From NCBI GenBank assembly GCA_037131245.1, contig JBAXRK010000005.1, forward strand, positions 5,475-69,474: a stretch of DNA of 64,000 nt, read 5' to 3'. Numbering within the stretch: position 1 is the stretch's first letter; each line of letters opens with the position of its first letter. This stretch comes from Candidatus Omnitrophota bacterium. Its GTDB lineage: Bacteria; Omnitrophota; Gorgyraeia; Zapsychrales; Fredricksoniimonadaceae. A program made the position numbers and the translations under genes. The notes beneath the pieces were generated by a model. That model made no database searches. It was not told the DNA's origin and saw only the letters and a program-made list of their open reading frames with translations. Shown piece by piece: positions 8,076 through 64,000 of the stretch.

Positions 8076-9037
8076 GCACGACCCCTTCGGCGCTGATGGG
8101 CCGGATCCTGCTGGTCAGAAATGACCGTTTTGGGGAGTTTTTGCTGAATATCCCGGCTTTTCGGGCGATAAAAGAGTCATATCCAGGGGCTCAGGTGACG
8201 GTCGCGGTTGCGCCCGGTGTGGAGGAGTTGGCACGAGCGGTGCCGTTCATTGATCGGGTCCTGGTTTTTCCGCCGGAGAATAGCGCCTGGTTCGAGTTGG
8301 TCCGGTTTGTTTTGTTTTTGCGCCGGGAGAAATATGACGCGGCGGTGGTCTTAAATCCGACAGCGCGGGCGCATCAAATATTGTTTTGGGCGGGTATCCC
8401 GCGGCGGGCCGGTTATGCCCGCAAGCACGCGTTCTTTTTAACAGATCGTATCGCGGATCGCAAGGGGCTCGGGCACAGGCATGAGGTCGAGAACAATCTT
8501 GACCTGGTTGCTTTGCTGGGTTGTGCGACCGCGGATAAGTCGCTGGTGTTAAATGTTCCGGTAGATATCCAGGACCATGTTGCCCGGAAGTGGGGGCTGG
8601 ATCCTTCCGAACGTTATGTGGCGGTCCATCCGTGGACCAGCGATTCCGTCAAGCAGTGGCCGCTGGAGAATTTCGAGCAGCTGGTGACAACGTTAGCGCA
8701 AGATAAGGCGCACCGGGTTGTTTTGATCGGACGGCCGGAAGCGTGGCACCGGCCGTTACGTGTGCCGCGGTCGGATCGGGTCATTGATCTGAGCGGGCGG
8801 ACGAGTTTACTCGAGGCCGCGGCGGTGTTGCGTTGCTGCTCGGTGCTGGTGTCCTGCGACAGCGGCCCGGTGCATTTGGCCGCGAGTGTCGGGACAAAAG
8901 TGGTGGCGCTCTTTCGGGATGATATGCCCGGCAAGAATCCGGAGCGCTGGGGGCCGTGGCCGGTATTCAACCATGCGGTTGTCGCGGCGGGCCGCTTGGA
9001 GCAGATCACGCTTGAACAGGTAATGGCACGGATCTAG
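8072..9037 (+). CDS. glycosyltransferase family 9 (heptosyltransferase family)
   Basis: RILLVRNDRFGEFLLNIPAFRAIK N-terminus and C-terminal CDSGPVHLAA motif typical of GT9; ATGA overlap upstream. Confidence 0.75.
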   Translation: MSTTPSALMGRILLVRNDRFGEFLLNIPAFRAIKESYPGAQVTVAVAPGVEELARAVPFIDRVLVFPPENSAWFELVRFVLFLRREKYDAAVVLNPTARAHQILFWAGIPRRAGYARKHAFFLTDRIADRKGLGHRHEVENNLDLVALLGCATADKSLVLNVPVDIQDHVARKWGLDPSERYVAVHPWTSDSVKQWPLENFEQLVTTLAQDKAHRVVLIGRPEAWHRPLRVPRSDRVIDLSGRTSLLEAAAVLRCCSVLVSCDSGPVHLAASVGTKVVALFRDDMPGKNPERWGPWPVFNHAVVAAGRLEQITLEQVMARI

Positions 9038-9083
9038 GTGTAGTTAACGTAACAAGGGAAAGTATCAACAGGTGGCGTCGTTT

Positions 9084-9806
9084 ATGGATGATGGTTTGAA
9101 GAAACATTTCATTAATAATCCTGTTTTCTTAAAAATAAAGCCCCGCTTTAATTGGCGGACTTTTAAGACGGAGAAATACGTTAAGCAGGTTTTTATCAAT
9201 GAGCGCGTTGTTGAGACGCCGTTCGTTATTTCCCGTCTTGGGCGATTGCCGAAAGGTTCGGCGGTATTGGACCTCGGATGCACAGAGAGCGTGCTTCCCC
9301 TGTATCTTGCCGCGCTCGGGTACGAAGTGACGGGCACGGATTTTCGCGTGTATCCTTATGAAGTCCCGCATTTTACTTTCCGGCAGGCGGATATCATGAA
9401 GTTGCCGTTCCCGGACGAGTCTTTTGACGCGGTCACTTGTATTTCGACACTGGAACATATTGGCATTGGCCATTACGCCGATCCGCGGCACGAGGGGTGG
9501 GGCGACCTTAAGGCTATTGAAGAGGCGGCGCGTGTTTTGCGGCGTGGCGGGCGCTTTCTGCTTTCGGTTCCTTTTGGTTGTCCCAGGGAGGACTCATTTC
9601 AGAGAGTGTATGATGGCGCGCGGCTTGACCGTTTGCTGGCCGGTTTTAAGGTCGATGAAGCTGTTTATTATGTGAACTGCCCGGCCGCCCCCGGGGCATT
9701 GAATAATGCCTGGGCAGAAGTTGATCGCGCGACAGCGGCAAAGTCTATTTCGGAAGAACGGACGAATGGGGTTTGTATTATTTCCGCCAGCAGGGGGCTA
9801 TCTTGA
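9084..9806 (+). CDS. class I SAM-dependent methyltransferase
   Basis: VLDLGCTES motif I, FDAVTCISTLEHIG; track start GTG 9072, but ATG 9084 has a better AGGTGG Shine-Dalgarno spacing. Confidence 0.7.
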   Translation: MDDGLKKHFINNPVFLKIKPRFNWRTFKTEKYVKQVFINERVVETPFVISRLGRLPKGSAVLDLGCTESVLPLYLAALGYEVTGTDFRVYPYEVPHFTFRQADIMKLPFPDESFDAVTCISTLEHIGIGHYADPRHEGWGDLKAIEEAARVLRRGGRFLLSVPFGCPREDSFQRVYDGARLDRLLAGFKVDEAVYYVNCPAAPGALNNAWAEVDRATAAKSISEERTNGVCIISASRGLS

Positions 9807-45700: not shown

Positions 45701-46264
45701 ATGGCTTATTACGATGAGACACAATTGAAAGCTCTGGGGTTCAAGCGCCTGGGCAAGAATGTAAAGATAAGCACCCACGCGAGCATTTATAATGCTGAGA
45801 TGATCGAGGTCGGCGATCATTCCCGGGTGGACGATTTCTGTTTGTTGTCAGGAAAGATCACGATCGGGAAGTTTGTGCATGTGGCGCCCTACTGCAATAT
45901 GGCGGGTGGTGAAAAAGGGATCGTCATGGAAGATTTTTCCGGACTGGCTTATGGCGTGCAGGTCTTTACCCAGTCGGATGATTACAGCGGCAAGACCCTC
46001 ACAAATCCTACCGTCCCGGACCGTTTCAAGAATGAAACCAAGAAAGAGATCCTGATCCGGCGGCATTCTATTGTAGGCACCGGCTCGGTTATTCTGCCCG
46101 GGGTCACGTTGGAGGAAGGCACGTCGGTCGGGGCGATGTCACTGGTCAGGAAATCAACCCAGGCCTGGGGCATTTACATGGGGAATCCGGCGAAGCGGAT
46201 CATGGAAAGGCACCGCGACCTGCTGGCTCTTGAAGAGGAATTCTTGAAAGGCCCCGCGTGTTGA
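45701..46264 (+). CDS. left-handed beta-helix (hexapeptide) acyltransferase, amino-sugar N-acyltransferase-like (VioB-type)
   Basis: Hexapeptide repeats (IGDHSRVDDFCLLSGKITIGKFVHVA; IVGTGSVILPGVTLEEGTSVGAMSLV); located next to the wecE-like gene. Confidence 0.65.
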   Translation: MAYYDETQLKALGFKRLGKNVKISTHASIYNAEMIEVGDHSRVDDFCLLSGKITIGKFVHVAPYCNMAGGEKGIVMEDFSGLAYGVQVFTQSDDYSGKTLTNPTVPDRFKNETKKEILIRRHSIVGTGSVILPGVTLEEGTSVGAMSLVRKSTQAWGIYMGNPAKRIMERHRDLLALEEEFLKGPAC

Positions 46265-55947: not shown

Positions 55948-56949
55948 ATGCTGGACAACAAAAAGATCTTAGTAACCGGAGGCACAGGGTCCTTCGGGCA
56001 TAAATTCACCGAGACGGTCCTTAAGCGGTACAGTCCCAAGAAACTGGTCATTTTCAGCCGTGACGAGTACAAACAGTACGAGATGGCCAAGCTTTTTCCG
56101 GAGAGCCGGCATCCGGCAATACGGTATTTTATCGGCGATGTGCGTGATAAAAGCCGCTTGTTCCGGGCCTTTGAGGGGATCGATTATGTGGTGCATGCGG
56201 CGGCGCTCAAGCAGGTTCCGGCCCTGGAATATAATCCGACTGAAGCGGTGAAGACCAATGTGGATGGGGCGAATAATTTGGTCGATGCGGCGATCGATGC
56301 CGGCATCAAAAAAGTGATCGCGCTTTCAACCGACAAAGCGGTCAGCCCGGCGAATCTTTACGGGGCAACTAAACTCGTGGCCGAGAAATTGTTCATCGCG
56401 GCCAATGCTTATGGCGGCGGGCGCGTGCGTTTCGCGGCGGTGCGCTATGGCAATGTGGTCGGCTCGCGCGGCAGTGTTGTGCCTTTTTTCATGGACCTGA
56501 AGAAAAAGGGCGTTAAGGAATTCCCTATTACGGATGAGCGGATGACCCGGTTTTGGATCACGCTGGAGCAGGGCGTCGAGCTGGTCCTTAAGGCGCTGGA
56601 CGAAGCGGTGGGCGGCGAGATCTTTATTCCCAAGATCCCCTCCATGCGTGTGACGGACCTGGCGAAAGCGATGGAACCTGCCTGCACGTTCAAACATATC
56701 GGCATCCGTCCGGGTGAGAAGATCCATGAATCATTGATCTCCGAGGATGAAGCCCGCAAAGCGGTGGAACTGCCGCGGCATTACATTATCCTGCCGCAGT
56801 TTGTCGGACCGGCGGAAGCTGAAGGCAAATTTCCCAAGGGGCCGGCCCTGCCCGACGGGTTCTTTTACCGTAGCGACTTGAATAAGGAGTGGCTCAATGT
56901 CGCGCAGCTCAAGGATATGGTGCAGAGCCTGGAGCGTAACGATGCCTAA
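55948..56949 (+). CDS. pseB: UDP-N-acetylglucosamine 4,6-dehydratase (inverting)
   Basis: ILVTGGTGSFGHKF, FIGDVRD, VVHAAALKQVPALEYNP, LSTDKAVSPANLYGATK, VRYGNVVGSRGSVVPFF, MTRFWITL. Confidence 0.85.
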   Translation: MLDNKKILVTGGTGSFGHKFTETVLKRYSPKKLVIFSRDEYKQYEMAKLFPESRHPAIRYFIGDVRDKSRLFRAFEGIDYVVHAAALKQVPALEYNPTEAVKTNVDGANNLVDAAIDAGIKKVIALSTDKAVSPANLYGATKLVAEKLFIAANAYGGGRVRFAAVRYGNVVGSRGSVVPFFMDLKKKGVKEFPITDERMTRFWITLEQGVELVLKALDEAVGGEIFIPKIPSMRVTDLAKAMEPACTFKHIGIRPGEKIHESLISEDEARKAVELPRHYIILPQFVGPAEAEGKFPKGPALPDGFFYRSDLNKEWLNVAQLKDMVQSLERNDA

Positions 56950-58105
56950 GGCGCGTTCACGTCAACAGCCGCTATCTTATGGGCGCCAGACGATCGGAGC
57001 GGATGATGTTGCCGCCGTGGTCAGGGCGCTTAAAAGCCCTTTTTTAACCCAGGGGCCCGAGGTGGAGGCGTTTGAACGGGCTTTATGCGCCTATACCGGA
57101 GCTAAATATGGCGTGGTCGTTTCTAATGGCACCGCGGCGCTGCATTTAGCGGTGGCGGCATTGGGTATCAAAGAAGGCCGTTCGGGTGTTACGTCGCCGA
57201 TAACGTTTTTGGCTTCGGCCAATGCGATGGTATATGCCGGCCTTCAACCTTTGTTCGCCGATATCGATCCTTTAACGGTGAATATGTCGCCTAAAGCGCT
57301 GGCGGCGGTGATGCGTCAGGATACGAAGCTTGTTATCCCGGTCCATTTTGCCGGCCGGCCGGCGCCGATGAAAGAGATCGCGCGGCTGGCCCGTTCCCGG
57401 AAATGTTACGTGATCGAAGACGCAGCCCACGCGATCGGCAGTTGTTATCCCGACGGGGGCAGGGTTGGCAGCGGGAAGTATTCGGATATGACGATCTTTT
57501 CCTTCCATCCGGTCAAGACCATCACTACCGGGGAGGGCGGCGCGATCATGACCAACGATGCTGTCCTTTATGAACGGCTCAAACGTTTGCGCGCGCACGG
57601 GGTCATGCGTGATCCGGCGCAGTTGGAGCAGAACCCAGGGCCGTGGTATTACGAGATGCAGGAGTTGGGATTTAATTACCGTTTGACGGATATGCAGGCA
57701 GCGCTGGGCACAAGTCAGCTAAAGAAGATCGACCGCTGGCTGGCGCGGCGCGCGAGGATCGTGGCGGCGTATAACCGTGCCTTCCGCGGCCTACCGTGGT
57801 TAACGTCCGTGTGCGGCGATGACAAGGCCGTCGGGTATCATCTTTACGTGGTGCGGATCCGCTTCGACCAGATTGGCCTGGACCGCGCGGCGCTGATGGC
57901 CCGCCTGGCAAAGGACGGCATTGGCAGCCAGGTCCATTACATCCCTGTTTATCAGCATCCTTTTTACCGGAAGAATTTTCCCGTTGGGGCGCCTTGCCCG
58001 GCGGCGGAAGAATATTATGAACAGTGTTTGTCATTGCCGCTGTTCCCCGGGATGTCCGCGGGGGACGTTGCGCGCGTGATCAAGGCTGTCAGAAAGCTTT
58101 GTTAA
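56942..58105 (+). CDS. pseC: UDP-4-amino-4,6-dideoxy-N-acetyl-beta-L-altrosamine transaminase
   Basis: Track ORF 56897..58105; ATG 56942; LSYGRQTIGADD, FLTQGPEVEAFE, lysine block FSFHPVKTITTGEGG. Confidence 0.8.
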   Translation: MPKARSRQQPLSYGRQTIGADDVAAVVRALKSPFLTQGPEVEAFERALCAYTGAKYGVVVSNGTAALHLAVAALGIKEGRSGVTSPITFLASANAMVYAGLQPLFADIDPLTVNMSPKALAAVMRQDTKLVIPVHFAGRPAPMKEIARLARSRKCYVIEDAAHAIGSCYPDGGRVGSGKYSDMTIFSFHPVKTITTGEGGAIMTNDAVLYERLKRLRAHGVMRDPAQLEQNPGPWYYEMQELGFNYRLTDMQAALGTSQLKKIDRWLARRARIVAAYNRAFRGLPWLTSVCGDDKAVGYHLYVVRIRFDQIGLDRAALMARLAKDGIGSQVHYIPVYQHPFYRKNFPVGAPCPAAEEYYEQCLSLPLFPGMSAGDVARVIKAVRKLC

Positions 58106-58140
58106 GGATCGTTAAACGCATTACCCGGAGGTTTTTTAAG

Positions 58141-58788
58141 ATGACGAACAAACAGGCAAAAATGTGGCAGGGCGATTTCGGGACGGAGTATATCGAGCGG
58201 AACTATTACTCACCTGCTGAGCTCGATGGGTTCTATAAACGGAATTTTGGTAGCACGCGCACGCAGTTCAATACGGCTTTTCTCGGGAAGCTGAACCGGG
58301 ATATCCGCATCCTGGAGGTTGGGTGTAATGTCGGCAATCAGTTGCTTTTGCTGCAAAAGATGGGGTTCCGCAATCTGTACGGGATCGAGATCAATAAGGT
58401 CGCGATCGAAAAGGCCAAAACCCGCGGCCAGGGTCTTAATGTTGTTTATGGCGAGGCCCAGGATATCCCGTTCAAGGACGGTTTCTTCGATCTGGTCTTT
58501 ACGGCCGGGGTGCTGATCCATATTCCACCGAAGGATATCAAGCGGGTGATGGGTGAGATCGCCCGCTGCTCAGCAAAATATGTTTGGGGTTGCGAGTCTT
58601 ACGCCAAGGAATATCAGCCGGTGGTCTACCGGGGGAACAAGAACCTGTACTGGAAGACAGATTTCTGTTCGCTTTATGAGCAGTATTGCCCGTCACTGCG
58701 TCGCAGCAAGGTGCAGATGATGAAGTATCTCTCGCAGGATCTCTACGATTATATGTACCTGTTGAAAAAGAAGGGCTCAAATGCTTAA
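58141..58788 (+). CDS. pseudaminic-acid-biosynthesis-associated methylase family protein
   Basis: Track ORF 58024..58788; ATG 58141; WQGDFGTEYIERN, ILEVGCNVGNQL, GIEINKVAIEKAK, GVLIHIPP, family pattern as I recall it for the Pse-associated methylase. Confidence 0.65.
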   Translation: MTNKQAKMWQGDFGTEYIERNYYSPAELDGFYKRNFGSTRTQFNTAFLGKLNRDIRILEVGCNVGNQLLLLQKMGFRNLYGIEINKVAIEKAKTRGQGLNVVYGEAQDIPFKDGFFDLVFTAGVLIHIPPKDIKRVMGEIARCSAKYVWGCESYAKEYQPVVYRGNKNLYWKTDFCSLYEQYCPSLRRSKVQMMKYLSQDLYDYMYLLKKKGSNA

Positions 58789-59479
58789 GGCATTGGCGAT
58801 CATTCCGGCCCGGGGCGGCAGCAAGAGGCTTCCCGGCAAGAACATCCGTTCGTTCTACGGGCGCCCGGTGATCGAATATTCGATCAGGGCCGCTCAACAG
58901 GCTGGTTGTTTCGAGGAGATCATGGTGTCGACGGATGATCCGGCCATTGCCGCGGTCGCCACCAGTTGCGGTGCCGCCGTTCCGTTCTTGCGCTCGGCAC
59001 AGAACGCCTCGGATACCAGTTCGACGGCCGACGCGCTCCTGGAGGTTCTCGCTGGGTACCGGCAAATGGGGCGGGAGTTCCCGCTATGCTGCTGTATTTA
59101 TCCGGCTGCTCCGCTTGTGTCGTTCAAGCGGCTGCGGCAGGCTTATGAATTGTTGTTGTCTTCATCGGTGGACAGCGTTTTTCCGGTTTTATCTTTCGGT
59201 TATCCTATCTGGCGGGCACTGAAGCTTGAGGGCGGGAAAGCCCGGATGATCTGGCCGGAGCATGCTGGCGCCCGTTCGCAGGACCTGCCGCCGGCCTTTC
59301 ATGACGCCGGGCAGTTCTATTTTCTGCGGACCGCGCGTTTTCTGCTGGAGCAGAAGCTTTTTATGGCCGACTCGCGCGTCCTGGAGATCCCTTCTTCTGA
59401 GGGGCAGGATATCGACACCGAAGAGGACTGGAAGATCGCCGAGGCCAAGTTTGGCATTTTGAGTAAAGGGGGCCTTTAA
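58781..59479 (+). CDS. pseF: pseudaminic acid cytidylyltransferase
   Basis: AIIPARGGSKRLPGKNI, IMVSTDD, RSQDLPPAFHDAGQFYF, QDIDTEEDW. Confidence 0.75.
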   Translation: MLKALAIIPARGGSKRLPGKNIRSFYGRPVIEYSIRAAQQAGCFEEIMVSTDDPAIAAVATSCGAAVPFLRSAQNASDTSSTADALLEVLAGYRQMGREFPLCCCIYPAAPLVSFKRLRQAYELLLSSSVDSVFPVLSFGYPIWRALKLEGGKARMIWPEHAGARSQDLPPAFHDAGQFYFLRTARFLLEQKLFMADSRVLEIPSSEGQDIDTEEDWKIAEAKFGILSKGGL

Positions 59480-59481
59480 GC

Positions 59482-60255
59482 ATGCGGCTTGGCTTAAAAC
59501 TCTGGTCGACCAATCTCAACTACATTTTGCCGGCGCGAGAGCTTTTCGCCCGGAAAGTTTTTGATTATGTTGAACTTTTTGTTGTCCCGGGCTCTTTGGG
59601 ATTATTGCCGCAATGGCAGGGGTTGCCGTTTCCGTATGTGCTGCATGCGCCGCATAGTTACGCGGGTCTAAACCCGGCGGATCCGTTACGCCGTCAGGAA
59701 AACCTGGCACTGACAGGGGAAGTTGACGCCTATACCAGTGCCTTGTCACCGGACTGGGTTATTTTTCATCCTGGCGTGAGTGGTGAGGCCGCGGAATCGA
59801 TCGCTCAATTCCGGGCTTTGGCCGCGCGCTTCCCGGACATGTTCCGTAAAGCGCTATTGGAAAATAAGCCGCAGATCGGCATGAAGGGCGAGACGTGCCT
59901 TGGTGCGTCGCCCGATGAGCTGCGCGCGATCAAGGACGGCGCCGACCTGCGTTTCTGCCTGGATTTCGGGCACGCGATCTGTTACGCGGTAGCGGCGGGA
60001 AAACCCTGGAAGAAGGTGCTCACGGATTTTCTGGCCTGTGAGCCGGCCATGTTCCACTTGAGCGACGGGTTCTTTACGGTCAAGGATGCCCATGAGCATT
60101 TTGGGTCAGGAGAGTATGACCTGCCTTTTCTGGCGGGATGTATCCCGACGGATGGCTGGGTTTCCATTGAAACAAAAAAGGACTCTGCCGATGATCTTGA
60201 TGATTTCGCGGTCGATGCTGAAAAGTTGAGGGGATATGCCCGAATTTCAAGTTAA
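59482..60255 (+). CDS. xylose-isomerase-like TIM-barrel protein (AP endonuclease 2 fold), function unknown
   Basis: Metal/active-site-type pattern HAPH...FHPG...ENK...DFGHA...HLSD...IETK along a 257-aa ORF. Confidence 0.55.
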   Translation: MRLGLKLWSTNLNYILPARELFARKVFDYVELFVVPGSLGLLPQWQGLPFPYVLHAPHSYAGLNPADPLRRQENLALTGEVDAYTSALSPDWVIFHPGVSGEAAESIAQFRALAARFPDMFRKALLENKPQIGMKGETCLGASPDELRAIKDGADLRFCLDFGHAICYAVAAGKPWKKVLTDFLACEPAMFHLSDGFFTVKDAHEHFGSGEYDLPFLAGCIPTDGWVSIETKKDSADDLDDFAVDAEKLRGYARISS

Positions 60256-61285
60256 TGGCCGCGCGATCGGCCCCGGTCATCCTTGTTATGTGATCGCGGA
60301 AATGTCGGCGAATCATGCCGGGTCTTTTGATAAGGCGTTGGCCATCGTTCGTGCGGCAAAGGAGTCCGGGGCGGACGCGATCAAGCTTCAGACCTATACG
60401 CCGGATACCATGACGATCGATTGCGACAATGAGTATTTTCAGCTGCATCATCCTTTGTGGAAAGACAAGACGCTTTATCAGCTTTATAAAGAAGCGCAGA
60501 CGCCCTGGGCGTGGCATCGCCCGCTCAAGGAAGAGGCCGACCGGTTGGGGCTGGATTTTTTTTCAACGCCTTTTGATGAGACGGCGGTAGACCTGCTTGA
60601 GGGGCTGGGGGTTGGGGTGTATAAGATCGCGTCGTTCGAGCTGGTTGACGACCTGTTGCTTAAGCGCGTGGCCCAAACCCGGAAACCGGTCATCATGTCG
60701 GCGGGGATGTCGACCCTGGAGGAAGTACGGCGTGCCGTTGAGATCCTGAGGGCTAACGGGACGGAACAACTGGCTTTGCTGCGTTGTGTGAGCGCGTACC
60801 CGGCTCGGGCTGAGGAGATGGATCTTGCGTTGATCCGAGATATGGCCGTTCGCTTTAACGTGGTTACAGGGCTTTCGGATCATACGACCGACAGTTTGTC
60901 GTCGATCGCTGGGGTAGCGGCGGGGGCGAGCATTATAGAAAAACATTTTAAGCTGTCTGGGGATGACACTTCGCCCGATGCAGCGTTTTCGCTGACGCCA
61001 CCGCAGTTCCACGCGTTGGTGTCCGATGTGCGCCGTACCGAAGCGGCGCTGGGGCGCGCGGTTTATGGCCCGGTGACGTCCGAGAAAGGCAGCCTCAAGT
61101 TCCGTCGCTCGCTCTTTTTTGTGATGGACCTGGCAGCGGGGGCTGTGGTAACGGCGCCATCCATTCGGGTGATCCGCCCGGGGGACGGGTTAGCCCCTCG
61201 GGAGCGTGAAAAAATATTAGGCCGGCGCTTGAAAAAGGCTGTGGGGCGCGGTCAGCCGGTATCCTGGGAAGATCTCGATGCGTAA
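60236..61285 (+). CDS. pseI: pseudaminic acid synthase (NeuB family)
   Basis: YVIAEMSANHAGS, GADAIKLQTYTPDT, YKIASFELVD, GLSDHT, IIEKHF, SAF-like C-terminal domain IRVIRPGDGL. Confidence 0.85.
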   Translation: MPEFQVNGRAIGPGHPCYVIAEMSANHAGSFDKALAIVRAAKESGADAIKLQTYTPDTMTIDCDNEYFQLHHPLWKDKTLYQLYKEAQTPWAWHRPLKEEADRLGLDFFSTPFDETAVDLLEGLGVGVYKIASFELVDDLLLKRVAQTRKPVIMSAGMSTLEEVRRAVEILRANGTEQLALLRCVSAYPARAEEMDLALIRDMAVRFNVVTGLSDHTTDSLSSIAGVAAGASIIEKHFKLSGDDTSPDAAFSLTPPQFHALVSDVRRTEAALGRAVYGPVTSEKGSLKFRRSLFFVMDLAAGAVVTAPSIRVIRPGDGLAPREREKILGRRLKKAVGRGQPVSWEDLDA

Positions 61286-62111
61286 ACTGAGCGTTATTTT
61301 TTGTTGTTCCGGCGGGTTGGGAGAGACCGCGCTCAGGGCGGCGTTGCGCCTTCCTCAGGTGCGCATCAAGCGCGTGCTGACCGATCAAGGCTCCACGGGG
61401 ATCCTGGGGCTGGCCGCCAAGCAGGCATTGCCGGTTACCATTGGCAATCCCCGGCGCAAGGCCGCGGCTTTCGACGGGACGTGCGATGTCCTGGCCTCGG
61501 TCAATTATTTATTCGTCCTGCCTGAAGCCATCCTGAAGAAAGCCGGAGTCCTGGCCTTTAATATCCATGGCTCCCTGCTTCCGAAATACATGGGCCGGGC
61601 GCCGGCCACCTGGGTCATTATTAACGATGAGATCGAGACCGGGATCACGGTCCACGAAATGGCGCCGGACGTGGACGCGGGGGATATCCTTTACCAGGAA
61701 AAGATCGCGATCGGCAATGATGATACCGGCGGTTTTTTGCTCAAGAAAATGGCCCGGCGGTATCCGGTGATCTTGCGCCGTATTTTTGCGCAGATCGGCC
61801 AGGGGCGGATCAAGCGTCTGCCGCAGGACCTGTCCAGGAAAAGTTATTTCGGTAAAAGAGAACCCTCGGACGGCCTGATCGACTGGCGCTGGAGTTCGAG
61901 AAAAGTTTACAACTGGGTGCGCGCGCAGACTAAGCCTTATCCGGGGGCTTTTGGCCCCATCGAGGGCGAAACCCGTCGTATTTGGAAGGTTCGGGATGTG
62001 CCGGGTTTTACCGAAGCTGTTGAGCCGGGGCGCCTGGTCACGCGGCGCGGCCGCCGTTTGGTGGTTTGTGGTCAGGGTGCCGTGGAATTGGTGGAGATTT
62101 CGGCTCTATGA
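61278..62111 (+). CDS. formyltransferase-family protein (sugar N-formyltransferase candidate)
   Basis: FNIHGSLLPKYMGRAP and DAGDIL (Asn/His/Asp catalytic pattern of N10-formyl-THF transferases) plus Fmt-like C-terminal domain. Confidence 0.7.
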   Translation: MRKLSVIFCCSGGLGETALRAALRLPQVRIKRVLTDQGSTGILGLAAKQALPVTIGNPRRKAAAFDGTCDVLASVNYLFVLPEAILKKAGVLAFNIHGSLLPKYMGRAPATWVIINDEIETGITVHEMAPDVDAGDILYQEKIAIGNDDTGGFLLKKMARRYPVILRRIFAQIGQGRIKRLPQDLSRKSYFGKREPSDGLIDWRWSSRKVYNWVRAQTKPYPGAFGPIEGETRRIWKVRDVPGFTEAVEPGRLVTRRGRRLVVCGQGAVELVEISAL

Positions 62112-64000
62112 GCAAAGATATTCTTTTTACCGGGCATTTTTGCCTTTATGGGGGGTCCTCGGGGTGGCCGGCGAAAGTCAATCGCCTGGCTCTGGCGGGG
62201 CTGGCCGCTTTGCTCAAGAATTCATCGCTTGGCCAGGTTGACGCGCTGTGCAGTTGGGACGATTTTTTGCAGCAGAAGGACGTTGCCGGCCCGCGTCAGT
62301 ATAGTTATGACCGGGAGAGTATTTACCAATTTAATCATGTCGATTTTGCAGCGATGCACTCTTTCCTTGATGAGCTTTATGCCATCTCGAAGGAGCTAGG
62401 GCCTGAGTTCGGCCTTGTCCATGCCGGGATCCCATTGCTGAGCCCTATCGAGATCCGCTGGGTCGACCCGTTCTTGCGTCAGCGCCTGGCGCCGATCAAT
62501 GTCGTCCAGAAGATCCTTCGCTCCGAACAGCCCGCGCGGGTTTTGGGCCTGGGGCGCGGATCGATGATGGATATTGTCAGAGAAGCGTCCGCGCAGGCGG
62601 GCGTTGATTTTGAACGTCAGCAGGGGCCGGCTGCCTGGCCATTCGACCTGGCATCCCGAACAAGGGTGCGGATCCCGTTTCGTTCGATGGACGACACCTT
62701 ACTTAAATGGCTGCCGCCTGAAGCAGATACCCGGGCTTTTGCGCAGCCGAAAGGCCGGCCGCGCGTTCTTTTTATTGGTTGGCTCGACCGGACGGTCGAG
62801 CGGTTGGTGGCTGCGCTGCCGCAGTTGCGTGAAAATCTGGATGCGGATCTTTTTTGTCTGGCTCCCCGTAGGGTGTCATTGATCGGGGAATTACAGAGTC
62901 AGGGGGTTCATTACAGCGATATGCACCACTGGATATCCCAACAAGAAGGCCGCCGGCTTATCGGTGATGCCCGGAAAGCGGCCGCCCGTGGTTGGCAAGA
63001 GATACAGAGCCTTTCCGTAAAACGGATGGGTCAGCGCTGGTATGGCTTGCCTATTTTTCCGTACGCCGAGCCTTTTCTTAAACAGGCGTGCCTGGAGGGA
63101 GTTCCTTTTTCTTTCCATTTTGTTGAGTCCGCCCGCCGGGCGATCGACCGTTGCCGGCCCGACCTGGTCGTTTGTTTTGAGGAATGGGAATTGCCGCGGG
63201 CCGTTTCGCTGCTTTGCCGTGAGCGGCAGATCCCTACGGTCGCTTATTACGCGATTTCCAATAGTAATTATCCCGGGCTTATCCGTCGCTCACAGGATTG
63301 GCTGGCGGCGTCAGGCGAAGTCCTGGCGACGGCCTTCAAGCAGCAATTTCCTGAGGGGCAGCACAGGATCGTTGGCGATACGCTGGTTGACAAGGCGCTT
63401 GAAAGTTCCGTGCCGGATGTCAGGAGCAAGGTGTGTGCCGAGCTGGGGTTAGCGCCAGACAAGCCGGTGGTCTTGTTACTGTCTACTTATGTGGTGGGGG
63501 TGGTGACTTTCAAAGATCTGGAGGAAATGTTCAAGCGAACGTTCCAGGGCGTGGCGGGGGTCAAGGACGCGCAGCTTATTATCAAAGCACATCCCCTGCA
63601 GCCGATCGAGGACATTAAGAAGTGGCTGAAGATGTGGGGTTGCCGAGGCGTGGTGGTGCGCGACTACAATCTTCTGTCGTTATGCCTTGCGGCCGATCTT
63701 GTTTCTGTCCCGGTCACGACCGCGGCCTGGCAGCCGATGCTGGCCCGGGTCCCGGTCGTGTGCTTGCTGCGTCGGGAAGTGGTGGAGCAGTTTCAGGACA
63801 TGAGGTATGATTTCCTGGAAAATAAGGGGGTTGTTCATATTGCGTTGGAGGCCGATCCGGCCGTGGTGTTTAACCGGCTGATCACGGATCCCGTTGCCCG
63901 CCAGGAACAGATCGAGCGCGGGGTGCGCCATGCCGAGGAGCATGTGGGCCCGGCAGACGGGAAAGCGGGCGCGCGGCTCACCGGGCTTTTGCGGGAGATC
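62108..64000 (+). CDS. large uncharacterised protein, GT-B-like glycosyltransferase candidate; 3' end beyond window
   Basis: Not in supplied track (no stop in window). My manual translation from ATG 62108 (ATGA overlap with the formyltransferase stop) gives 631 sense codons to base 64000: MSKDILFTGHFCLYGG...KPVVLLLSTYVVG...LIIKAHPLQP... Confidence 0.6.
   Translation, partial: MSKDILFTGHFCLYGGSSGWPAKVNRLALAGLAALLKNSSLGQVDALCSWDDFLQQKDVAGPRQYSYDRESIYQFNHVDFAAMHSFLDELYAISKELGPEFGLVHAGIPLLSPIEIRWVDPFLRQRLAPINVVQKILRSEQPARVLGLGRGSMMDIVREASAQAGVDFERQQGPAAWPFDLASRTRVRIPFRSMDDTLLKWLPPEADTRAFAQPKGRPRVLFIGWLDRTVERLVAALPQLRENLDADLFCLAPRRVSLIGELQSQGVHYSDMHHWISQQEGRRLIGDARKAAARGWQEIQSLSVKRMGQRWYGLPIFPYAEPFLKQACLEGVPFSFHFVESARRAIDRCRPDLVVCFEEWELPRAVSLLCRERQIPTVAYYAISNSNYPGLIRRSQDWLAASGEVLATAFKQQFPEGQHRIVGDTLVDKALESSVPDVRSKVCAELGLAPDKPVVLLLSTYVVGVVTFKDLEEMFKRTFQGVAGVKDAQLIIKAHPLQPIEDIKKWLKMWGCRGVVVRDYNLLSLCLAADLVSVPVTTAAWQPMLARVPVVCLLRREVVEQFQDMRYDFLENKGVVHIALEADPAVVFNRLITDPVARQEQIERGVRHAEEHVGPADGKAGARLTGLLREI

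Follow-up and report, generated by a model that had tools for sequence, protein, structure and literature searches.

An endonuclease IV-like TIM barrel predicted to replace PseG, and a formyltransferase as candidate for the PseH step, in a pseudaminic acid operon of Candidatus Omnitrophota

A pseudaminic acid operon in Candidatus Omnitrophota

The operon described here lies at positions 55948-62111 of a 64,000-nt stretch of DNA (hereafter the window) from a Candidatus Omnitrophota bacterium (assembly GCA_037131245.1, contig JBAXRK010000005.1, positions 5,475 to 69,474), and probably makes CMP (cytidine monophosphate)-activated pseudaminic acid (Pse) for a cell-surface polysaccharide by the textbook route, with two non-orthologous substitutions. 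A TIM barrel related to endonuclease IV (EndoIV), encoded between pseF and pseI, is predicted with good confidence, from sequence comparisons, to be a non-orthologous replacement of PseG, the hydrolase releasing the sugar from UDP. A formyltransferase encoded after pseI is the candidate for the step of PseH, the N-acetyltransferase. The source is a metagenome-assembled genome (MAG; labelled G000) of 18 contigs and 1.69 Mb, 74% complete, in which the window corresponds to C5:5475-69474.

Seven co-directional open reading frames (ORFs) make up the operon on the + strand, joined by overlaps of 4-20 nt or gaps of 2 nt (Table 1). pseB, pseC, the Pse-associated methylase, pseF and pseI exceed the curated NCBIfam equivalog cut-offs, in agreement with an earlier note on this DNA, in which the five had been called recognisable and tightly coupled. 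The same note had placed a TIM-barrel gene between pseF and pseI and a formyltransferase gene across the pseI stop. Both are confirmed by Pfam matches and coordinates, the formyltransferase start overlapping the pseI stop by 8 nt.

PseG and PseH, which had not been seen in the note, were looked for with hidden Markov models (HMMs) on the contig and in the genome, and neither was found. The best match to the PseG model (TIGR03590) across the 1.69-Mb, 74% complete assembly scores 27 bits (cut-off 153.55) and comes from MurG-like C-terminal halves. The PseH model (TIGR03585) has no match at E ≤ 0.01 in the same incomplete assembly, and a custom HMM built from 36 PseH-like GNATs of related clusters found nothing in the six-frame ORFs of the genome. 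Neither pseG nor pseH is present in the 35 kb of contig downstream of the operon.

The barrel in the place of PseG

In Pse clusters of dozens of species, belonging to more than 10 phyla, the barrel gene is found where pseG would be expected. In a scan of one genome per prokaryote species, barrel relatives were detected in 249 genomes, and 80 loci were kept. Searches by tblastn with the window proteins located pseI in 60 of the 80 loci, mostly flanked by pseB and pseC; the other loci are in many cases short contigs. At least one Pse-family gene resides in 72 of the 80 loci, and the eight without are scattered inside clades of Pse context. When the ORFs of related clusters were grouped into families by our own clustering, the order pseB-pseC-pseF-BARREL-GNAT-pseI recurred. 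Many clusters hold exactly these six genes, so that the barrel fills the one step left unassigned. The barrel tree mixes phyla, Alphaproteobacteria grouping for example with Akkermansia, a pattern which suggests horizontal transfer of the cassette.

Barrels are frequently fused to GNAT domains. A protein search returned 368 homologues, several being fusions of about 400-430 aa with a GNAT, and an exhaustive HMMER search of 1.84 billion representatives returned 370 barrel-family clusters at E ≤ 1e-30. Judged by length, about one third of the top 150 representatives are fusions, and the barrel is the C-terminal part in four of these. In seven of eight fusions scanned, the GNAT half has PseH as top NCBIfam match; the eighth (P0078) matches RimI first and PseH second. 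The domain order is reversed in one of the eight. PseG-PseH fusions of 477-530 aa, frequent in Omnitrophota, have the same architecture.

Barrel and PseG rarely share a genome. PseG exceeds the cut-off in one of 50 barrel-bearing genomes (G006), and reaches 101 bits in one more (G017). In both, PseG adjoins a second NeuB-family gene on another contig, and these genomes thus hold two self-contained nonulosonic acid (NulO) clusters. A separate sample was provided by 301 genomes evenly drawn from the phylum of the window, selected without regard to PseG or barrel. PseI exceeds the cut-off in 52 of them, G000 included, and the other 51 were compared. A full-length PseG-like gene is found in 45, in about 42 of these on the pseI contig (read from coordinates), and none of the 45 carries the barrel. 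Six genomes lack PseG (G189, G300, G315, G071, G073 and G280), and in four of the six, from four genera and three families, the barrel gene is the immediate neighbour of pseI; the barrel of G071 is fused to a GNAT. The chance of all four barrel genomes falling among the six is 15/249,900, a number of the kind that relatedness among genomes inflates.

These counts bear on the idea that canonical pseG and pseH reside in the unassembled quarter of the source genome, the barrel and the formyltransferase being accessory tailoring enzymes. The incompleteness of the genome speaks for this, as do the scattered Pse genes of Caulobacter and some other bacteria (PMC7591256). The idea is nevertheless very improbable, since phylum genomes 91-97% complete have the barrel only in the absence of PseG, since pseG mostly sits beside pseI where it exists, and since PseG is missing in 48 of the 50 barrel-bearing genomes, which belong to many phyla. 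Either the TIM barrel or the large downstream ORF had been proposed in the earlier note to supply the hydrolase; operon slot, fusions and mutual exclusion with PseG single out the barrel.

Family, metal ligands and fold of the barrel

AP_endonuc_2, or 'xylose isomerase-like TIM barrel' (PF01261), is the sole Pfam match of the barrel ORF (42.7 bits, cut-off 31.1). The protein falls outside CbiR: it scores 25.6 bits against the model NF041277 (cut-off 105), and its neighbours are Pse genes. The nfo models (TIGR00587, PRK01060) have no match at E ≤ 0.001 anywhere in the genome, barrel gene included. A housekeeping nfo, sought for contrast, was accordingly not found, which tells little in a MAG 74% complete. 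The fused homologues score 27-30 bits against an nfo cut-off of 244.

Residues E31, H55, H96, E127, D161, H164, H192, D195, D202, H204 and E230 are invariant in a 40-sequence alignment. The profile of the barrel family matches solely EndoIV chains and M. jannaschii MJ1311 in the PDB; a search with the single sequence returned noise, and the family profile was needed. EndoIV binds its metals by a set of three His, one Glu, Asp, His, His, Asp-x-His and Glu. In the profile alignment, all nine EndoIV ligands line up with 5zhz and 8edd (HAP, HPG, E(N), CxDxxH, H..D, DxH and E(T)); in the barrel, the ligand residues are H55, H96, E127, D161, H164, H192, D202, H204 and E230. Of 81 homologues, spread over more than 10 phyla, 80-81 keep the respective residue at each of these positions. 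The complete tri-metal set points to a phosphoesterase rather than an isomerase. The description 'xylose-isomerase-like' given in the note is therefore too loose. The Pse context argues against a role of the barrel in DNA repair as an AP-endonuclease.

The AlphaFold2 (AF2) model of the barrel has a pLDDT of 97.4. In fold searches, MJ1311 and TTHB071 are the top matches (Z 24-25), and EndoIV (Z 22.7) is as close as the ketose 3-epimerases (Z 22.6). The phosphoesterase reading therefore rests on the ligand set and not on the fold, which fails to discriminate.

The formyltransferase and the PseH step

The formyltransferase is the sole N-acyl-transferase candidate in the cluster. Three other candidates were considered as hidden PseH or PseH substitutes and discarded. 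The hexapeptide protein at window positions 45701-46264 is part of its own aminotransferase/glycosyltransferase module, the hexapeptide protein at C5:87104-87652 is WcaF-like, of the O-acetyltransferase type, and the MBOAT/SGNH pair downstream is an O-acylation system.

Formyl_trans_N (70.4 bits, cut-off 26.1) and Formyl_trans_C (58.8, cut-off 21.1) are both matched, and scores remain below the equivalog cut-offs of ArnA (172 against 777), PRK06988 (191 against 316) and Fmt (113 against 201.5). The motifs FNIHGSLLPKYMG and DAGDIL, quoted in the earlier note, are present; the N-x-H and D motifs (FNIHGSLLP and DAGD) align with the catalytic region of ArnA. Among solved structures, the ArnA formyltransferase domain (140 bits, residues 45-273) and Fmt (98 bits) come closest, and PseJ matches at no more than 38.9 bits. 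PseJ is the characterised formyltransferase making Pse5Ac7Fo (PMC11040635; PDB 6ci2, 6ci4), a sugar accepted by PseF (PMC11040635), and the enzyme of the window looks like a recruitment independent of PseJ. As the genome also holds Fmt (C5:26238-27224) and a PurN-like gene, the formyltransferase of the cluster is an extra copy.

Cluster-borne formyltransferases fall into at least four lineages. The first is a long, two-domain clade formed by the window enzyme, its homologue in locus L007 (55% identity) and that in L016. The second includes proteins of 250-256 aa encoded between pseG and pseI in G134 and G080. Short proteins encoded immediately after the barrel make up the third, and short proteins paired with a LmbE/PIG-L deacetylase the fourth. 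Pairs of this fourth kind, in which the formyltransferase measures about 226 aa, recur in Pse clusters, usually as an addition to a PseH-like GNAT (Table 1), and suggest that the N5 acetyl is exchanged for formyl. L007 carries both such a pair and a long formyltransferase.

The distribution of GNATs agrees with a PseH role for the long clade. All three clusters of this clade lack a PseH-like GNAT, which is present in 39 of 58 clusters with barrel and PseI. In three phylum genomes 90-94% complete (G134, G144 and G080), a formyltransferase gene lies within the Pse cluster or next to it, and the whole genome yields no PseH-like match. The formyltransferase gene takes the pseH slot, between pseG and pseI, in G134 and G080, and comes just after pseI in G144. 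N-formylation in place of acetylation had been proposed in the note, and is supported by the GNAT-less relatives in L007 and L016 and by these three genomes. We infer, with somewhat better than even confidence, both the activity of the enzyme and the nitrogen concerned: it would carry out the PseH step, giving a 7-N-formyl sugar. C4 of the hexose becomes C7 of the nonulosonate, hence the expected product is CMP-Pse5Ac7Fo.

Alternatively, the formyltransferase could act at N5 after deacetylation, or formyl could be a transient protection removed by the CE4-family protein encoded downstream, in the manner of ArnA and ArnD; in that case, an acyl group at N7, should there be one, would be added by some further enzyme that escaped recognition. 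The almost constant pairing of one clade of short formyltransferases with LmbE/PIG-L deacetylases, usually alongside a PseH-like GNAT, is in line with this, as are the ArnA domain being the closest solved relative and the CE4 gene lying two genes past the formyltransferase gene (L004 8504-9553). A preprint (SugarBase, 10.64898/2026.04.20.719630) describes free-amine or formyl CMP-nonulosonates and a deacetylase and formyltransferase pair in the NulO cluster of Kuenenia, findings which also count in favour. The window enzyme belongs, however, to another clade than the deacetylase-paired ones, the genome has no LmbE-type deacetylase, and the CE4 protein, tried as ArnD-like, lacks specific ArnD similarity. 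Without PseH, moreover, N4 still needs acylation before PseI, and no other candidate was found. The alternative is accordingly held unlikely. A more specific, and still less probable, version is an Arn-like cycle, in which the formyltransferase would mask the 7-amino group through barrel, PseI, PseF and GT-B protein, and the CE4 protein would later deformylate the polymer, leaving a surface glycan with free, positively charged 7-amino pseudaminic acid.

The 639-aa protein

The ORF following the operon starts at ATG 62108, overlapping the formyltransferase stop, and encodes a protein of 639 aa. No Pfam match at E ≤ 0.01, no NCBIfam match and no PDB sequence match were found; sub-threshold GT-B matches appear at E ≤ 1, and six homologues were retrieved. 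The AF2 model (pLDDT 80.6) shows a two-Rossmann GT-B fold for residues 215-636 (Z 15-17.7), close to UDP-GlcNAc 2-epimerases, MurG and TagF (Z about 17) and to NeuC (Z 16.5), preceded by an extra N-terminal region of about 210 aa. PseG is absent from the structural matches listed, a lack without weight in either direction. Neighbours in the ESM-Atlas carry Glyphos_transf, Capsule_synth, Epimerase_2 or LIC12162 domains. The Capsule_synth and Glyphos_transf models themselves are not reached by the 639-aa ORF, the resemblance coming from language-model and structure neighbours. K493-x-H495-P496 is invariant in the family; an HP motif marks CMP-ulosonate transferases. The chances that the protein is the Pse transferase are rated about even.

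None of the 80 other barrel clusters holds a homologue of the 639-aa protein, which cannot therefore be a general substitute of PseG. It may act as a hydrolase in the window, given that a distant homologue follows pseI in G280, a genome with neither PseG nor barrel. Taken further, this protein or the HAD protein encoded downstream would be the UDP-sugar hydrolase, and the barrel an epimerase or isomerase of the hexose or the nonulosonate. PseG and the hydrolysing epimerases NeuC and LegG are indeed GT-B proteins, and the ORF best matches UDP-GlcNAc 2-epimerases; the homologue in G280 matches Pfam Epimerase_2, and the barrel fold does not favour EndoIV over ketose 3-epimerases. Yet PseG is missing also from 48 of 50 tested genomes while the 639-aa protein is confined to the window cluster among barrel clusters, and in the minimal six-gene clusters the barrel is the sole unassigned gene. 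The barrel keeps five extra EndoIV-specific ligands that two-metal isomerases and epimerases do not need, and the invariant HP motif and the Capsule_synth and Glyphos_transf neighbours of the 639-aa protein fit a transferase. This assignment of roles is thus regarded as improbable, and the barrel is retained as the candidate hydrolase.

Two further genes lie after the 639-aa ORF (L004:8504-10688). The first (8504-9553) encodes the 349-aa CE4-domain protein, the second a protein of 381 aa with HAD-like sequence in its last 100 residues; the long N-terminal region of each protein matches no family.

Proposed pathway

PseB and PseC, the equivalog models of which pass their cut-offs, turn UDP-GlcNAc into UDP-4-amino-4,6-dideoxy-beta-L-AltNAc. 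The formyltransferase, and not a GNAT of the PseH type, would acylate the 4-amino group with formate from N10-formyl-tetrahydrofolate. The barrel, in place of PseG, would free 2-acetamido-4-formamido-2,4,6-trideoxy-L-altrose from UDP. PseG attacks C1; in the barrel, a metal-activated water would attack the beta-phosphorus, with the sugar O1 leaving, and the products would be the free hexose and UDP, as with PseG. PseI would then condense the sugar with phosphoenolpyruvate, PseF would yield CMP-Pse5Ac7Fo, and the 639-aa GT-B protein would probably transfer the sugar.

Several points weigh against this scheme. Two PseI-positive genomes hold neither PseG nor barrel, so that a third solution for the PseG step may exist. 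With a genome 74% complete, pseG or pseH may sit outside the assembled part. The barrel is below the cut-offs of the nfo and CbiR models, and its fold cannot separate EndoIV from ketose 3-epimerases or MbnB, its top matches MJ1311 and TTHB071 having no assigned function. The formyltransferase is related to PseJ distantly, at 38.9 bits; the pairs of short formyltransferase and deacetylase in many related clusters suggest a new acylation at N5 and not a replacement of PseH, and a CE4 deacetylase gene lies two genes downstream of the formyltransferase gene in the window itself.

Gene content and setting of the operon

The coordinates of the genes are collected in Table 1. The match of PseC to its model begins at residue 26, and the true start of pseC is probably ATG 56942. 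In the methyltransferase the match begins at residue 41, and the true start is possibly ATG 58141. The family of this methyltransferase (TIGR03587, no known substrate) recurs in 10 related clusters, at varying positions.

Table 1. Genes of the Pse operon and the ORF that follows it (window coordinates), and formyltransferase/deacetylase pairs in related loci
Feature	Position	Strand	Evidence
pseB, UDP-GlcNAc 4,6-dehydratase (inverting)	55948..56949	+	TIGR03589, 503.8 bits (cut-off 407.75); Pfam Polysacc_synt_2
pseC, UDP-4-amino-4,6-dideoxy-beta-L-AltNAc transaminase	56897..58105	+	TIGR03588, 485.4 bits (cut-off 423.5)
Pse-associated SAM (S-adenosylmethionine) methyltransferase	58024..58788	+	TIGR03587, 169.4 bits (cut-off 112.05)
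pseF, CMP-pseudaminic acid synthetase	58781..59479	+	TIGR03584, 270.5 bits (cut-off 205.7)
Endonuclease-IV-like tri-metal TIM-barrel protein, proposed PseG analogue	59482..60255	+	Pfam PF01261
pseI, pseudaminic acid synthase	60236..61285	+	TIGR03586, 436.9 bits (cut-off 340.25); Pfam NeuB + SAF
Two-domain Fmt/ArnA-type N-formyltransferase, proposed PseH replacement	61278..62111	+	Formyl_trans_N + Formyl_trans_C
639-aa GT-B protein, probable CMP-Pse-dependent glycosyltransferase	62108..64000, runs 27 nt beyond the window and ends at L004:8502	+	AF2 fold
Short formyltransferase + LmbE/PIG-L pairs	L010:12291-13669, L040, L045, L055, L063, L072, L075, L007:13438-14861		

The closest relatives of the window genes reside in Candidatus Omnitrophota MAGs. 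Upstream of the operon are an ABC exporter, a double GT4, a GalE-like epimerase and a separate aminosugar module. The 35 kb downstream hold the orphan 639-aa ORF, the CE4 deacetylase-family protein, the HAD-domain protein, methyltransferases, GT2 and GT4 transferases, and further the MBOAT/SGNH O-acylation pair and the WcaF-like O-acetyltransferase. The setting is that of a large surface-polysaccharide locus. In G269, the only genome of the same genus sampled, a NeuB-family gene is present (E 1e-83) that stays under the PseI cut-off. Close relatives appear to differ in the Pse cluster, as they usually do in surface-glycan loci.

Variant clusters in related genomes

Clusters of different make-up were found in the two genomes without PseG and barrel. 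In G073 (L091, G073:C3:108000-127000) the order is PseB-PseC-AKR (aldo/keto reductase)-PseF-class III aminotransferase-GNAT-PseI. In G280 (L092, G280:C26:40000-59000) a HAD hydrolase gene precedes pseI, and a gene for a 618-aa Epimerase_2/Capsule_synth-like protein, the distant relative of the 639-aa protein, follows it. Both genomes may take a third way through the PseG step.

In many barrel clusters, those of Omnitrophota above all, the stretch from pseC to the barrel includes genes for a class-III (GSA-aminomutase-like) aminotransferase, an aldo/keto reductase and a second cytidylyltransferase. Such a module is found in L005-L008, L017, L022, L046 and others (e.g. L005:7032-9232), and is missing from the window cluster. 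In six barrel clusters (L005:10701-12293, L017, L060, L066, L083 and L084), PseI is fused to a C-terminal PseH-like GNAT, the fusions measuring 484-530 aa. A distinct type of cluster has, in this order, the barrel, a NeuB-family synthase below the PseI cut-off, a hexapeptide acetyltransferase, a 232-aa protein, a methyltransferase and a LmbE deacetylase. It is found in L022, L023, L028, L032 and L052 (e.g. L022:11818-16237), from Bacteroidota, Geobacteraceae and a Pseudomonadota MAG, and suggests a variant nonulosonate spread horizontally.

Novelty and implications

Pseudaminic acid is a bacterial mimic of sialic acid, present on flagella, capsules and O antigens. Its six-enzyme pathway serves as a genomic marker and an anti-virulence target, and is exploited in chemo-enzymatic synthesis. 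In the literature searched (open-access papers and bioRxiv), no paper was found linking Pse synthesis to a PF01261/EndoIV-like enzyme or reporting a barrel in exchange for PseG. Formyltransferases in NulO clusters are already known; the proposed exchange of PseG for the barrel is new to this literature.

If the barrel does the PseG step, genome surveys requiring PseG under-count Pse producers. The 249 species-level genomes with the barrel include gut Akkermansia, Elusimicrobia, Melainabacteria, anammox Planctomycetota and Omnitrophota. A new class of enzymes releasing sugars from nucleotides would be at hand, a tri-metal phosphoesterase instead of a GT-B hydrolase, and CbiR would be joined by a second PF01261 protein with a small-molecule phosphoesterase function. 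The ArnA-like formyltransferase lineage, distinct from PseJ, could serve the enzymatic synthesis of CMP-Pse5Ac7Fo.

Comparison with known systems

The canonical PseB-PseC-PseH-PseG-PseI-PseF pathway is that of Campylobacter jejuni and Helicobacter pylori, and of psaA-F in Acinetobacter. The window shares with it PseB, PseC, PseI, PseF and the arrangement in one co-directional operon, the gene order resembling pseB-pseC-pseF-[G]-[H]-pseI. It differs by having no detected PseG or PseH and no GNAT, an EndoIV-like barrel in the G slot, and a formyltransferase after pseI.

The formyltransferase resembles PseJ in that both are encoded in a Pse cluster without PseH and feature the N-x-H...D motif. 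PseJ is a single-domain protein of about 190-217 aa, whereas the window enzyme adds Formyl_trans_C and is much closer to ArnA and Fmt. The two-domain architecture is shared with the formyltransferase part of ArnA, which formylates the 4-amino group of a UDP-linked L-sugar. Unlike ArnA, the window protein has no dehydrogenase domain, and it is encoded in a Pse operon and not in an arn operon.

KpsS1 is a Pse-specific transferase of the Capsule_synth kind (PMC11040635). The 639-aa protein has in common with the GT-B transferases KpsS1 and TagF the fold and the invariant HP, and its gene directly follows the CMP-Pse genes; it differs in reaching no Pfam model, in the N-terminal extension of about 210 aa and in having six homologues.

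Barrel and PseG are alike in the step proposed, in the place in the operon and in the tendency to be fused to a PseH-type GNAT. They differ in fold, a (beta/alpha)8 barrel against GT-B, with no sequence similarity, and in chemistry, the tri-metal centre of the barrel being expected to cleave P-O rather than C1-O. With EndoIV and PF01261 proteins, the barrel shares the TIM-barrel fold (Z 21-23) and the nine conserved metal ligands. It is shorter than EndoIV (257 against about 285 aa), and its context is nonulosonic acid synthesis and not DNA repair or cobamide genes. CbiR of Akkermansia, also a PF01261 protein, hydrolyses the phosphodiester of a small molecule, cobamide; both EndoIV and CbiR use a metal cluster to cleave the P-O bond and release an alcohol (PMC7733943).

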